Assembly: GCA_043821445.1 (NCBI GenBank)
Contig: JBDRCT010000033.1
Coordinates: forward strand, 69,391-133,390
Origin: Candidatus Omnitrophota bacterium
GTDB taxonomy: Bacteria > Omnitrophota > Omnitrophia > Omnitrophales > Aquincolibacteriaceae
DNA: 64,000 nt
Reading direction: 5' to 3'
Part shown: piece by piece, positions 7,395 to 13,710 of the stretch
Layout: the number at the start of each line of letters is the position of its first letter
Numbering within the stretch: the first letter of the stretch is position 1
The notes under the pieces: model-generated
Seen by the model: the letters and a program-made list of their open reading frames with translations, nothing else
What the model was told of the DNA's origin: nothing
Database searches by the model: none
Made by a program: the position numbers and the translations under genes

Positions 7395-8477
7395 TCAAGA
7401 AGGTTCCCGACCCTTTGCTTGTTCAAATGCCTCTTCCGGCTTTAAATCGGTGAGACACGCGATCGTTTGACACTCCTTATGATAGCGGAATTTGTAGTAA
7501 CACGGACGGCATTCCAATCCTCGTTTAAAGATGGCGACCGCATCAGGCGAGGGCGGATAGGGTCCGTACACCTCGGGCGGCACGGGCCCGTAGAAAGCCA
7601 GGAGCGGCACATGAAGCGCATGCGCCAAATGGACGAGGCCTCCGTCATTGCCGGCAAAAAGCGCGGACTTTTTGAGGACCATGGCCGTTTGTGTAAGGTT
7701 CGTCTCCCCCGCCAGCACGACCGAGGGCGGTTGGATCATCGCCTGCAATTCTTCGCATAATGCCCGCTCGGAACGACTGCCCAAGATGGCGACGCCGTGG
7801 ATGTCTCTTTCTGCTTGAAGTTTTTTGATCAGTTCCGCGAAATACTTCACGGGCCAGCGCTTGAAAGAAGCCTCCTTCCCCCACGAATCCCCCCCGCCGG
7901 GAGCGACTGCGAGAAAACGCTCCGACAGGAGCTTTAATTTTCCGGCAACCTCCGCCTCGATCAAAAATTCGAGCTTCGGAAAAAAATATTCGAGAAAACG
8001 GTCTTTCACAGGAACACCGGCCGCCTCCGCGAGATCACAGTAAAAATCCACGACGTGACGTTTCCAGAACGCCTCAGGAAGCGAAAAATGGATATTGTGG
8101 AATAGGGCGCGCTTTTTATACGCAAATCCCGCACAACGGGGAACGCCAAGAAAGAACCGGCCCCAAAAGGCATGTTCGCGCCGCAGTGAATAATCCAGGA
8201 TCAGATCATAATGCCTGGCCCGGAGTTTCCGGCTCAGTTCCCAGTGGTCTCGAAGATTTTCGAGCCAGGTCTGACGATGAACGCGGTCCTTATCCACGAC
8301 AAAAATATCATCGATGTGGGGATTATGCTCCACCACCTCACGGGTACGGGACCCCAACAGAAGATCGACGGTCTCGACCGTCGGGATGAGACGAAGCGCA
8401 CGCATGACGGGTGTTACAAAGAGAAGGTCCCCGATCCCATACGGATGAACGATGAGTACACGGCGAAGCGTTCTCAT
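7395..8477 (-). CDS. Glycosyltransferase family 9 (ADP-heptose:LPS heptosyltransferase-like) #1
   Basis: 360 aa. N-terminal VLIVHPYGIGDLLFVTPVMRAL and C-terminal GNDGGLVHLAHALHVPLLAFYGP, both GT9 hallmarks. Confidence 0.85.
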   Translation of the reverse strand: MRTLRRVLIVHPYGIGDLLFVTPVMRALRLIPTVETVDLLLGSRTREVVEHNPHIDDIFVVDKDRVHRQTWLENLRDHWELSRKLRARHYDLILDYSLRREHAFWGRFFLGVPRCAGFAYKKRALFHNIHFSLPEAFWKRHVVDFYCDLAEAAGVPVKDRFLEYFFPKLEFLIEAEVAGKLKLLSERFLAVAPGGGDSWGKEASFKRWPVKYFAELIKKLQAERDIHGVAILGSRSERALCEELQAMIQPPSVVLAGETNLTQTAMVLKKSALFAGNDGGLVHLAHALHVPLLAFYGPVPPEVYGPYPPSPDAVAIFKRGLECRPCYYKFRYHKECQTIACLTDLKPEEAFEQAKGREPS

Positions 8478-9547
8478 ACAATCCTTCTCTCGATCTTGGC
8501 AGGATCAGAATGATGAGATATCAACTCTTTCACCGCCAGATAAACATCCTCCACGGCAATCTCATCGATATAGGTGAACTTCCGTTCGGCTTCCGGAATG
8601 TGGGAGACATCCTTCGCGACCACGCGAGAACGCTTCCCCGGCGGTCGCCAGCGTCCGGGCCCAAGACCTGCCTCATACCGTCCAAAAATGGAAACCACCG
8701 GCGTGCCGACCGCTGTCGCGATATGCACGGGTCCGGAATCATTGGAGACAAGCAGGGACGATCTTTGAAGGAGTGCGCCCAGATGCCCAAGCGAAAGCCT
8801 TCCGCTCAGATCAAAGACCGGTGCCGGAGTGTTTTGGGTCAGTCTTTCGATGAGAGGACGGTCCTGGGCGGTTCCTATCGCAATGAAAACGCTGGAGCGG
8901 TCCTTTTGGATCCGGGTCACAAGTTCGGCAAAGCGCGCAGCCGGCCACATTTTGGTCACATCGCTTGCCGAGGGATTGAGAACGATCCAGGGCCGATCGC
9001 ATGGAATTTTGTGGAACATACGCAAGCTCTCGAAAGAGCGGGCAAACCGGTCTGTAACAGGAAAAAAGGTTTCGATCTCTTGGGGAGGCGTCACGCCCAA
9101 AAGGTCCAGGAGCTCAAAAAGATATTCGGCTTCCTGTTTTTTTCCTTCTTTTTTATTATAAGGATGAACATGCGTAAGCGCCCACGGTGCGCGGCGTGCG
9201 TAACCTATGCGCAGGGGGATCCCCGCGAACCACGCGGCAAGATGCATCCTGTTTGTGCCATGGGCATGGACCACCACATCAAATCCTTTGCTCCGGAGTT
9301 TTTGACTGAAACGGAACTGCCCCCAAAGTCCGCGCTCGCTCCCTTTTTTATCATAGAGGATCACCTCGTCTAAGAAAGGATTCTCCTGAACGATCTCGCG
9401 ATGTTCGAGGAACACAACCGCCGCGATCCAGGCTTTCGGAAATTTTTGCCGTAGGGCCTTAAAGAGCGGCGTAGTGAGAACGATGTCCCCGATGCGATCG
9501 GTGCGTGTGATGAGAATGCGCGGGGCTTCAGGAAGATTAAGCGGCAT
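8474..9547 (-). CDS. Glycosyltransferase family 9 heptosyltransferase-like #2
   Basis: 357 aa. ILITRTDRIGDIVLTTPLFKAL...SNDSGPVHIATAVGTPVVSIFG. Confidence 0.85.
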   Translation of the reverse strand: MPLNLPEAPRILITRTDRIGDIVLTTPLFKALRQKFPKAWIAAVVFLEHREIVQENPFLDEVILYDKKGSERGLWGQFRFSQKLRSKGFDVVVHAHGTNRMHLAAWFAGIPLRIGYARRAPWALTHVHPYNKKEGKKQEAEYLFELLDLLGVTPPQEIETFFPVTDRFARSFESLRMFHKIPCDRPWIVLNPSASDVTKMWPAARFAELVTRIQKDRSSVFIAIGTAQDRPLIERLTQNTPAPVFDLSGRLSLGHLGALLQRSSLLVSNDSGPVHIATAVGTPVVSIFGRYEAGLGPGRWRPPGKRSRVVAKDVSHIPEAERKFTYIDEIAVEDVYLAVKELISHHSDPAKIERRIV

Positions 9548-11617: not shown

Positions 11618-13710
11618 AGCATAAGTGCTCTTTGGCAATGTTCGAACACTTCTTCCACGGAAATATGTGTAAGACAAGCCTTCGTTTCTTTGGCCTTACA
11701 GATACCCTCGTAACAGGGCTGGCACGGTAAATGGTGCGAGAGCGCGTCAATCTTTTTTCCAGGCGGAATATGACGTTTGGCGTCTGTCGGACCAAACAAG
11801 GCCACGACCGGGACATTCATGGCGGCGGCCATATGAAGCGGCGCCGTATCGCCTGTCACAGCTAAATGAAGCTGTTTGAAAAAAGCCGGTAGTTCCTCCA
11901 ACGCGGTTTTCCCGATGAGGTCGAGGATCTTACCGGACTCTAAGGAATAAAAAGGGGTACTGAGATCCTTTTCTTCGGGAGAGCCGATAAGGACAATCCG
12001 CGCGTCATATTTTTCAAGGAGCCGTTTTGCCAGACCGATAAAATACTCCGTAGGCCAACGTTTGCTCGACCAGTTGGGGCTGGACCCCATCACGAACCCG
12101 ATGATCCGAGTAGACTCTTTAGGCTCGAGTATACTGATCATCTGGCGTGCTTTTTCAAGGCTCTCGGGTTTTATCCAAAGTTCCAACGTATCATCGAATT
12201 TGATAACCCCGGCCTTGGACAGCACCCGGAATTGATGGCGGAGAGGCGAATCCCCGACCTCAAAAGTCCTGTCGGGACGATTCAGAAGCCATCCCCATCT
12301 CCCGCGTTCGAAACCGAAACGCTGGACCGCGCCGCCAAGATACGCCAGAAGATGCGTCCACTTATTGTTGTGGAGATCGACGGACATGTCAAATCCTTCG
12401 CGGCGAATGCGTCGAGCGGTCTTTAAAAGATAAAAAATGTTCGAAAGTTTTTTCCGGTCCACCAGGATCATATCATCCAGATAAGGACATTCTGATACGA
12501 TCGGGGCGAGTTTGCGATCGACAAGGAGCGTGATCGCAGCATCCGGGAAGCGTTCCTTGAGCATCCTTAAACTCGGCACGACCAGGATAAGATCCCCCAT
12601 GGCCCCAAGTTTGATCACGAGGATCCTCCGTCGTTTGCGGACTTCCTGATAGATCTCGAGCGTTTTCCGAACCATTTGTTCCAGATTGAATTTCTCTTCC
12701 ACCTTTTTTCGAAGCTTCACCGCGAATGCTTTGGCCTTATCCCGGTCCGTCAAAAGTTCGTACATGGCCTCGGCCATCGCGGGGATATTCCTCGGAGGGA
12801 ACAGAAGGCCTGTCTCGTTGTGGTCAATAATATCCCGCACACCACCCAGCCAGGTCGCGGCTACGGGGGTCCCCACGGCGCCGGCCTCGATGACCACCCG
12901 TCCGAAGGGCTCCGGGATTAGCGAGGAAAGCACCAAAAGATCGGACTGGGCTAAAAGTCCTGCGACGTCGCGCGTCGGCGGGAGGATCTTGACGCAGGTC
13001 TCAAGCCCGAACTGTTGCACCGTCTTTTTCATCAGATCCGTGTAACGATGCCTGCCACGGGCTTCGGAGCCGACGATCCAAACTTCAAAATGAGGAAGCC
13101 GGCTGCGCAATAAATGAACGGCCTTGAGGAATTCCACCTGGCCTTTGGCCGGCGAGAACCGCCCGATGTGGATGATCCTCATCGGACCCTTGTGCTTTTC
13201 GAATTTCGCGAATGAGAATGTGAATTGTGAAAGGTCGACGCCACGCGGGACCAGATGGATCCTGTCCGGCGGAACATGAAATTCATCGATCATTCTCCGG
13301 CCGATCGCATGCGACGCCACGATCACGCGCTTCCCCCACCCCATGACAAAGCTCAGCGGATGAACGGAATAATGTCCGTGGCAGGTCGTGATAAATGGAA
13401 TACCGGTCTTGCGGGCCGCGAGCCATCCGAGCCAGGCCGGGACGCGGCTGCGGGCGTGAATGATGTCCACACGCTCCCGTTGGATGATCTTCACAAGCTC
13501 TTCGACGAGGAATAAGCTGGCCAGAGATTTTTGGTGCACGGGCAGCCCGTAATGTGGAATCCCGATCTTCTGGAGTTCGGCTACAAGCGCCCCGCCGGAG
13601 GAAACGACGAGGGTCGCATGCCCTTCTTTTTTCATGGCCCTTGCAAGATCCACCACCCCGCGTTCGGTCCCGCCAAGCTCAAGCGCCGGCAAAAGCTGCA
13701 TCACCTTCAT
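11614..13710 (-). CDS. Fused GT4 (group-1 glycosyltransferase) + GT9 (heptosyltransferase) two-domain protein
   Basis: 698 aa. Residues 1-360 are GT4 (GGTERGVVDLARAM...EPFGRVVIEAGAVGTPV). Residues 370-698 are GT9 (ILVIKLGAMGDLILVVP...TGDTAPLHMAAAMNVPVVALFGP). Confidence 0.8.
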   Translation of the reverse strand: MKVMQLLPALELGGTERGVVDLARAMKKEGHATLVVSSGGALVAELQKIGIPHYGLPVHQKSLASLFLVEELVKIIQRERVDIIHARSRVPAWLGWLAARKTGIPFITTCHGHYSVHPLSFVMGWGKRVIVASHAIGRRMIDEFHVPPDRIHLVPRGVDLSQFTFSFAKFEKHKGPMRIIHIGRFSPAKGQVEFLKAVHLLRSRLPHFEVWIVGSEARGRHRYTDLMKKTVQQFGLETCVKILPPTRDVAGLLAQSDLLVLSSLIPEPFGRVVIEAGAVGTPVAATWLGGVRDIIDHNETGLLFPPRNIPAMAEAMYELLTDRDKAKAFAVKLRKKVEEKFNLEQMVRKTLEIYQEVRKRRRILVIKLGAMGDLILVVPSLRMLKERFPDAAITLLVDRKLAPIVSECPYLDDMILVDRKKLSNIFYLLKTARRIRREGFDMSVDLHNNKWTHLLAYLGGAVQRFGFERGRWGWLLNRPDRTFEVGDSPLRHQFRVLSKAGVIKFDDTLELWIKPESLEKARQMISILEPKESTRIIGFVMGSSPNWSSKRWPTEYFIGLAKRLLEKYDARIVLIGSPEEKDLSTPFYSLESGKILDLIGKTALEELPAFFKQLHLAVTGDTAPLHMAAAMNVPVVALFGPTDAKRHIPPGKKIDALSHHLPCQPCYEGICKAKETKACLTHISVEEVFEHCQRALML

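Follow-up and report, generated by a model that had tools for sequence, protein, structure and literature searches.

A lipopolysaccharide-core operon of Omnitrophota with five overlapping GT9 domains and a GT4-GT9 fusion protein

Several systems that build the core of lipopolysaccharide (LPS) have been described and can be compared with the locus reported here. In the enterobacterial waa (rfa) locus, GT-B-fold enzymes of glycosyltransferase family GT9 are encoded in a cluster with waaA, use 3-deoxy-D-manno-octulosonic acid (Kdo)-lipid A as substrate, and act adjacent to a GT4 enzyme; Escherichia coli K-12 has four GT9 genes, waaC, waaF, waaQ, and waaU. Larger sets occur in Aeromonas hydrophila, Aeromonas salmonicida, and Actinobacillus pleuropneumoniae, which have five to six heptosyltransferases (OpsX/WaaC, WaaF, WahE, WahF, WahD/WasD, and WahC) and cores with at least five heptoses; in A. 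pleuropneumoniae, six heptosyltransferases have been assigned experimentally and the core contains five heptoses, and the Aeromonas set is similar (PMC3559599). We analyzed a 64-kb stretch of DNA from a Candidatus Omnitrophota bacterium (assembly GCA_043821445.1, contig JBDRCT010000033.1, positions 69,391 to 133,390), called the window below. The list of open reading frames (ORFs) and Pfam searches showed that five consecutive genes on its minus strand, at 7395-13710, encode five GT9 domains, the first of which is fused to a GT4 glycosyltransferase. The block is a lineage-typical LPS-core operon of Omnitrophota and of some relatives in the Planctomycetota-Verrucomicrobiota-Chlamydiota (PVC) group, a new architectural variant of a well-known type of system. 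Its genes and modules are as follows.

11614-13710, minus strand: GT4::GT9a fusion gene, 698 amino acids (aa), first gene of the block
12640..13710, minus strand: GT4 (retaining GT-B) module, residues 1-357 of the 698-aa fusion; PF13439, PF00534, and PF13692
11614..12627, minus strand: GT9_a, residues 362-698, the C-terminal module of the fusion; PF01075, E 1e-29
11614-11730, minus strand: Cys4 region of GT9a, fusion residues 661-698
10487..11617, minus strand: GT9_b, stand-alone, 376 aa from the ATG at 11617; PF01075, E 4e-31
9537..10490, minus strand: GT9_c, stand-alone, 317 aa; PF01075, E 3e-25
8474..9547, minus strand: GT9_d, stand-alone, 357 aa; PF01075, E 7e-34
7395..8477, minus strand: GT9_e, stand-alone, 360 aa, last GT9 of the block; PF01075, E 2e-29

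All five domains matched the Pfam model Glyco_transf_9 (PF01075) with 89-118 bits against a cutoff of 22 bits (E 3e-25 to 7e-34). GT9c, the shortest paralog, has a length near that of WaaC and matched the model strongly in its C-terminal lobe only. The longest ORF of GT9b opens at a TTG at 11677, as opposed to the ATG at 11617 that gives the 376-aa protein. Adjacent genes overlap by 4 nt, in an ATGA sequence, at the a|b, b|c, and d|e junctions and by 11 nt at c|d, and the genes of the block are translationally coupled through these overlaps. A promoter and terminator scan gave 8 promoter-like sites, compared with about 10 expected from shuffled sequence. An initial annotation, made from the sequence alone, had described four stand-alone GT9 genes with overlaps of 4-11 nt and, directly upstream, a 698-aa GT4-GT9 protein; the ORF list and a check of the junctions showed every coordinate to be accurate, and both modules of the long protein were confirmed with Pfam.

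The block lies within an operon for lipid A, Kdo, and core synthesis, in the order waaA-lpxK-lpxL::Elm1-GT4::GT9a-b-c-d-e-...-hldA-kdsB-pyrG, with all genes on the minus strand. Its GT9 enzymes share with those of the enterobacterial waa locus the same Asp, Lys, and D(T/S)(G/A)xxH residues. However, the Omnitrophota block has five GT9s, which are co-directional and overlapping and have no one-to-one ortholog in E. coli; its GT4 forms a single chain with a GT9 and is 19% identical to WaaG; and it contains neither WaaP/WaaY heptose kinases nor a WaaL ligase. The D13/K192/D261-H266 signature is likewise shared with the heptosyltransferases of Aeromonas and A. pleuropneumoniae (PMC3559599). In A. 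pleuropneumoniae L20, these are separate proteins with experimentally shown functions (APL_0186, 0421, 0979, 0981, 1402, and 1403), whose genes seem to be scattered because the locus tags are far apart, whereas the Omnitrophota enzymes are encoded in one operon, are partly fused, and are known here from sequence. The initial annotation had taken two or three heptosyltransferases as the norm, which understates the numbers in E. coli K-12 (four) and A. pleuropneumoniae (six, PMC3559599). Furthermore, a Selenomonadaceae locus and the locus of a proteobacterial metagenome-assembled genome (MAG), both unrelated, each had five Pfam-confirmed GT9 genes within 9-15 kb. Given four GT9s in E. coli K-12, six in A. 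pleuropneumoniae, and five in these two loci, a count of five is unremarkable by itself. What is mildly new is the strictly co-linear, overlapping arrangement of five ancient orthogroups, together with fixed GT4::GT9 and LpxL::Elm1 fusions and recurrent GT9::GT9 fusions.

We examined the residues that WaaC uses for catalysis and for heptose contact. In WaaC numbering, D13, K192, E/D222, D261, and H266 were kept in all five GT9s and in their orthologs from three distant Omnitrophota loci (L065-L067). K192 contacts O5 and O6 of the heptose and is present in L,D-heptosyltransferases, and it is R or N in D,D-heptosyltransferases (PMC3559599); E. coli WaaU has a cysteine in this column. The GT9 signature D(T/S/G)(G/A)xxH reads D-T-A-xx-H in GT9a, D-S-G-xx-H in GT9b, D-S-A-xx-H in GT9c, and, in a variant form, D-G-G-xx-H in GT9e, which retained K192. 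Judged by these retained residues, the five GT9s are catalytically intact, and the conservation of K192 and its companions is the main argument, though short of proof, that all five may still bind a heptose nucleotide.

Pairwise identity was 21-27% among the five GT9s and 15-26% between them and E. coli WaaC, WaaF, WaaQ, and WaaU. In a neighbor-joining tree with bootstrap, in which these four E. coli enzymes served as references, the orthogroups a to e were each monophyletic with 98-100% bootstrap (100% for GT9c), which shows that the five GT9s are ancient paralogs. The phylogenetic comparison with the E. coli enzymes, which the initial annotation had proposed, thus recovered five supported orthogroups and no supported pairing. 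A one-to-one assignment to WaaC, WaaF, WaaQ, or WaaU was rejected on the low identity, on support below 30%, and on equivalog scores that did not resolve it. With the heptosyltransferase II (HepII) model TIGR02195 (cutoff 134.6), GT9a scored 134.9, GT9b 133.4, GT9e 128, GT9d 115.4, and GT9c 105.8, and GT9a is the most WaaF/HepII-like of the five; none came near the enterobacterial RfaF model NF008162. The WaaQ/HepIII models (TIGR02201 and NF007742) were not reached either; the best score was that of GT9d, 127.9 bits against a cutoff of 170.2, and TIGR02201 is the best NCBIfam model for GT9d.

The same arrangement was found throughout the phylum. Homologs of the fusion protein were present in Candidatus Omnitrophota MAGs (GTDB species representatives) with 71-96% identity, and full-length GT4::GT9 proteins made up more than 120 clusters, down to 53% identity. 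Omnitrophota loci share the order topA-xerC-waaA-lpxK-lpxL::Elm1-GT4::GT9a-b-c-d-e-(fdx)-DUF3108-(DUF1846)-hldA-kdsB-pyrG, and the order a-b-c-d-e was constant in all Omnitrophota loci examined. The five-domain block was also present in the distant loci L065-L067, whose fusion protein is 53-58% identical, and throughout the phylum the operon retains the hldA kinase gene. Related genomes thus routinely show the same count and order, which, coupled with a prior description, would have refuted the claim of the initial annotation by its own standard; a literature search on Omnitrophota LPS and heptosyltransferases and on GT4-GT9 fusions found no description of the arrangement. Compared with the 71-96% identity of the whole fusion, identity to relatives was 65-93% for GT9a, the highest among the GT9 domains, and 59-79% for GT9b, the lowest. 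Speculatively, GT9a may catalyze an inner, invariant step and GT9b a peripheral, variable one, which would fit these ranks.

Neighboring GT9 genes are fused to each other in some relatives. GT9d and GT9e share a single in-frame ORF, joined by a stretch of about 40 aa of low complexity, in L018 (14184-16388) and L008 (14056-16296), GT9b and GT9c are fused into a 669-aa product in L067 (12121-14130), and L073 encodes a GT9 protein of 677 aa (13004-15037). Fusions of adjacent GT9s are Rosetta-stone-type hints that neighboring GT9s may cooperate. In two loci, L023 and L073, the module varies: there are fewer GT9s, together with an additional GT4 and a polysaccharide deacetylase. The LpxL::Elm1 fusion is kept in L065-L067 and L073, and Elm1 is a separate gene adjoining GT4::GT9 in L071 and L072, the loci of an Auribacterota and a Chlamydiota MAG. 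When representatives clustered at 50% identity were searched exhaustively, dozens proved to be full-length GT4::GT9 proteins, the most distant of them about 25% identical, including those of Candidatus Theseobacter exili (Auribacterota, PVC group) and a Chlamydiota MAG. The Auribacterota and Chlamydiota MAG neighborhoods have the form Elm1 - GT4::GT9 - GT9... and are reduced versions of the module, as is L073, whose fusion protein is 27% identical. Given these distant representatives and loci, the module is old and extends beyond Omnitrophota. In L073, the dprA-topA-xerC-waaA-lpxK linkage persists despite the low identity of the fusion protein.

Other combinations of the two modules, in reversed order or with three to five modules, were seen among metagenomic proteins in the same exhaustive search. 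In proteins of 1081-1416 aa, two to five separate stretches matched the GT4::GT9 query, and therefore much larger multi-glycosyltransferase fusions exist; proteins of about 750-810 aa were reversed, with the GT4 part at the C-terminal end. These multi-stretch or reversed proteins are P0150, P0198, P0207, P0208, P0211, P0230, P0235, P0238, P0241, P0246, P0252, and P0260.

The structure of the fusion protein was predicted, as the initial annotation had called for, with AlphaFold2 from 100 homologs. The model is confident (predicted local distance difference test score 91.5, predicted template modeling score 0.83) and consists of two complete GT-B modules. The last GT4 helix (343-359) leads directly into the first GT9 strand (362-366) through a linker of about 2 residues. 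In Pfam, PF13439 covers residues 13-161, PF00534 residues 165-331, and the GT9 domain residues 430-674; the GT4 half matched PF13439, PF00534, and PF13692 with E about 1e-31 to 1e-35, the first two above their cutoffs. The EX7E motif of the GT4 half, E267...E275, was invariant in 100 homologs. Its best match in the PDB by sequence was 7mi0, a glycosyltransferase of Rickettsia africae (E 1e-49), to which the modeled half aligned in Foldseek with a template modeling (TM) score of 0.84 and 31% identity; HepE and BshA were also matched. The GT4 half was rejected as a WaaG ortholog on its 19% identity to the E. coli enzyme. The GT9a half gave TM scores of 0.83-0.86 with 3tov and 0.83 with 1psw (WaaF), and this match of AlphaFold2 model and Foldseek to the GT-B fold concerns GT9a alone among the five. 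Among solved structures, 3TOV (a GT9 of Veillonella parvula) and 1PSW (E. coli WaaF) also matched GT9a and GT9b best by sequence (E 1e-26; 1e-25 to 1e-16). Both are single-module proteins, unlike the fusion, and no solved chain in the Foldseek search spans both fusion modules (query-normalized TM score at most 0.47). Database pipelines already name the fusion protein lipopolysaccharide heptosyltransferase II.

Taken together, these data make it probable that the block represents the part of a large Omnitrophota LPS operon devoted to the core oligosaccharide and that its enzymes assemble a heptose-rich core sequentially. On the cytoplasmic side of the inner membrane, WaaA would first attach Kdo to the lipid A precursor, and the GT9 enzymes would then act in succession, each on a different acceptor and each, most probably, transferring heptose from ADP-heptose. 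The product would be a heptose-rich core, probably branched, with up to five heptoses. The GT4 module may add a hexose-type sugar in a step that neighbors that of the GT9a fused to it, resembling WaaF followed by WaaG, a comparison by analogy only because the GT4 half is merely 19% identical to WaaG. The sugar of the Elm1 module, whatever its nature, would be added as well. A physical coupling of the enzymes into an assembly line is suggested by the fusions, of which GT4::GT9a is fixed and GT9b::c and GT9d::e are specific to certain lineages. The initial annotation, too, had proposed a core that is rich in heptose or branched, and the kept residues and the LPS operon context make the proposal reasonable, though the rarity from which it had been argued was overstated.

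Several points weigh against this interpretation. Family GT9 also holds transferases of sugars other than heptose, and none of GT9a-e grouped with any E. coli enzyme above about 30% bootstrap in the neighbor-joining tree. Only GT9a reached an NCBIfam heptosyltransferase equivalog cutoff, by a margin of 0.3 bit. The WaaC/HepI models (TIGR02193 and NF008204) were reached by none of the five, the best score being 95 bits against 185.3 for GT9c, and none is recognizably WaaC-like. GT9e is absent from L002, L006, and L009, and some species can therefore do without it. Only fusions and gene order speak for the proposed order of action and physical coupling. Finally, tblastn found GmhA, GmhB, HldC, and HldD in none of the Omnitrophota neighborhoods of about 20 kb that were fetched.

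The last point concerns the supply of ADP-heptose. In the 64-kb window, too, GmhA, GmhB, HldC, and HldD were not found by tblastn with E. coli queries or by Pfam searches of ORFs of at least 150 aa. The kinase domain was the only part of the pathway detected; the protein passed the TIGR02198 cutoff and is about 40% identical to the N-terminal half of E. coli HldE, and the adenylyltransferase half is absent. These results agree with the initial annotation, which had noted only the kinase half of HldE nearby and no GmhA, GmhB, or adenylyltransferase in the window. Among the fetched loci, tblastn matches to GmhA, GmhB, HldC, or HldD occurred in non-Omnitrophota loci only. ADP-heptose is thus a putative donor. 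The absence of GmhA, GmhB, and HldC carries little weight, because the search covered 64 kb and neighborhoods of about 20 kb only.

The same observations can be explained by a core of mixed sugars, made by an LPS operon in which at least one GT9 has switched its donor, on the model of the GlcNAc-transferase-type WaaK/WaaU branch, so that the product is not a penta-heptose. We consider this explanation plausible but rather unlikely. WaaU has lost K192, whereas the heptose-contacting K192, D261, and H266 of WaaC are retained in all five GT9s and in their distant orthologs, and a dedicated heptose-7-phosphate kinase has been kept in the operon across the phylum. Both facts argue against a donor switch, even though four of the five GT9s fall below every heptosyltransferase equivalog cutoff, no orthology of GT9a-e to characterized enzymes was found, the GT9e signature D-G-G-xx-H is atypical, and the kinase alone was seen of the ADP-heptose genes. 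The replacement of GT9s by an extra GT4 and a deacetylase in L023 and L073, which shows that the sugar content of the core varies, also speaks for mixed donors.

A cysteine motif could speak for a different acceptor. GT9a has a Cys4 knuckle of the form C-x-P-C-x4-C-x7-C, whose cysteines C663, C666, C671, and C679 were invariant in 100 homologs, and GT9e carries its own, related Cys4 motif in its C-terminal tail (about 7395-7600). Both lie in the same region as the 'iron finger' cysteines of TibC, which has a GT9-like catalytic domain, uses ADP-heptose as donor, and has four cysteines in its C-lobe that form a metal knuckle (PMC4358343). GT9-fold protein heptosyltransferases exist (PMC4358343), and some of the GT9s might heptosylate proteins, like TibC and AAH, or another glycoconjugate, e.g., a capsule or S-layer glycan. 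However, of 55 GT9 domains checked in other phyla, 43 have the knuckle, which is common in ordinary WaaF-like enzymes, and none of E. coli WaaC, WaaF, WaaQ, and WaaU has it. A special iron-finger link to TibC was rejected because the knuckle is so common, and it is probably a metal-binding element that WaaF-like GT9s widely share. TibC and AAH (the BAHT family) have an N-terminal beta-barrel, a beta-hairpin thumb, a dodecameric assembly, and a protein acceptor, none of which is evident in GT9a-e. The barrel, of about 97 residues, is absent in all five, which begin with a WaaC/WaaF-type N-lobe (beta1-GD motif at residues 1-13, G-D at 12-13). In addition, the genes are embedded between the lipid A/Kdo genes and hldA-kdsB, an LPS context. 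We regard an acceptor outside LPS as very improbable. A recent tandem duplication or a decay of redundant paralogs, which would make the count of five accidental and functionless, is more improbable still. In its favor, GT9e is missing in three related species and GT9b evolves faster than the other four; against it, the paralogs share just 21-27% identity, their five orthogroups persist with 98-100% bootstrap to 53%-identical loci, and their catalytic residues are all intact, and it was rejected on the orthogroups and the residues. Both of these last explanations are largely excluded.

A bolder version of sequential, heptose-rich core assembly can be drawn from the fusions, since GT4::GT9a and LpxL::Elm1 are fixed, GT9b::c and GT9d::e have arisen independently in different lineages, and related metagenomic proteins of 1081-1416 aa have three to five matched stretches. 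In this version, the glycosyltransferases of Omnitrophota and some PVC relatives would be physically coupled in one machine for LPS-core assembly, the core made would be conserved, of a penta-heptose type, and unlike that of any chemically characterized LPS, and at least one GT9 would perhaps have a novel specificity for its acceptor or donor. We find it doubtful. The more modest reading, a heptose-rich core assembled in sequence, predicts for the whole phylum a core made by five non-redundant GT9 enzymes. The natural Rosetta-stone fusions would point to core glycosyltransferases that work together, and they could direct structural studies of the passage of a membrane-bound acceptor between GT-B core enzymes. 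The understanding of LPS biosynthesis is unchanged, as the enzymes, the chemistry, and the operon logic are of a known kind. The literature searched contains no chemically characterized Omnitrophota LPS, and LPS goes unmentioned in the main genomic survey of the phylum.

The other LPS genes of the operon, upstream and downstream of the block, are the following.

16784..18238, minus strand: WaaA/KdtA Kdo transferase; PF04413, E 7e-67; NCBIfam Kdo transferase, E 2.5e-107
15787..16836, minus strand: LpxK, tetraacyldisaccharide 4'-kinase; PF02606, E 2e-63
13838..15787, minus strand: LpxL-type lipid A acyltransferase fused to an Elm1-family GT-B-like module, 649 aa; PF03279, E 2e-43, and PF06258, E 3e-43
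2942..3961, minus strand: PfkB heptose-7-phosphate kinase-domain protein (hldA); TIGR02198, 391.7 vs 345 bits
2187..2945, minus strand: KdsB, CMP-Kdo synthetase; PF02348, E 2e-57

In NCBI records, bacterial proteins of PF06258 carry the name 'ELM1/GtrOC1 family putative glycosyltransferase'. Upstream of waaA, on the same strand, are genes for a XerC/D-like recombinase and TopA. Downstream of the block are genes for a small 4Fe-4S protein, DUF3108, DUF1846, the PfkB kinase, KdsB, and PyrG; a look-up of this PyrG returned no identical protein. The first of these, a 4Fe-4S ferredoxin-like ORF of 97 aa (7092-7385, minus strand), lies 9 nt downstream of GT9e and has a low-complexity insert that separates its two cluster motifs. 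It is conserved with about 56-62% identity in most close relatives, undetected in some (e.g., L007 and L016), and absent from L065-L067. The DUF1846 gene (4541-6076, minus strand; PRK13663 family) is present at this position in L002, L003, L010, L015-L017, and L019 and absent from L006-L009, L013, L018, and L065-L067; thus, it is a variable insert of the operon. The gap of 579 bp between DUF1846 and hldA contains a 95-aa ORF (4138-4425, minus strand) that starts MPTYEYECGTCEHRFE and has two CxxC pairs; its product resembles an FmdB-type zinc-ribbon protein. Just upstream of hldA is a strong sigma-70-like site (4073-4045, minus strand) with 11/12 matches and a TG.

In two related Omnitrophota MAGs, an island lies directly after GT9b (L014, 13214-19531; L005, 9022-17829). 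In L014, GT9c resumes beyond the island, and the fetched locus of L005 stops inside it. The island genes encode a DUF1016-SNase nuclease, a Schlafen-like helicase with an S24 peptidase domain, an N6/N4 DNA methylase, a ResIII helicase, and an AlbA_2/Fic-like_C protein. It looks like a defense or mobile island that interrupts the LPS-core operon.

The remainder of the window consists of housekeeping genes, namely shikimate and branched-chain amino-acid genes, enolase, SecY, and a ribosomal protein operon. Essentially all confirmed genes of the 64 kb are on the minus strand, and the GC skew is negative throughout. A 387-aa ORF (35201-36364, minus strand) between the acetolactate synthase large subunit and DivIC had no Pfam match, and a 402-aa protein (22112-23320, minus strand) matched DUF7544.

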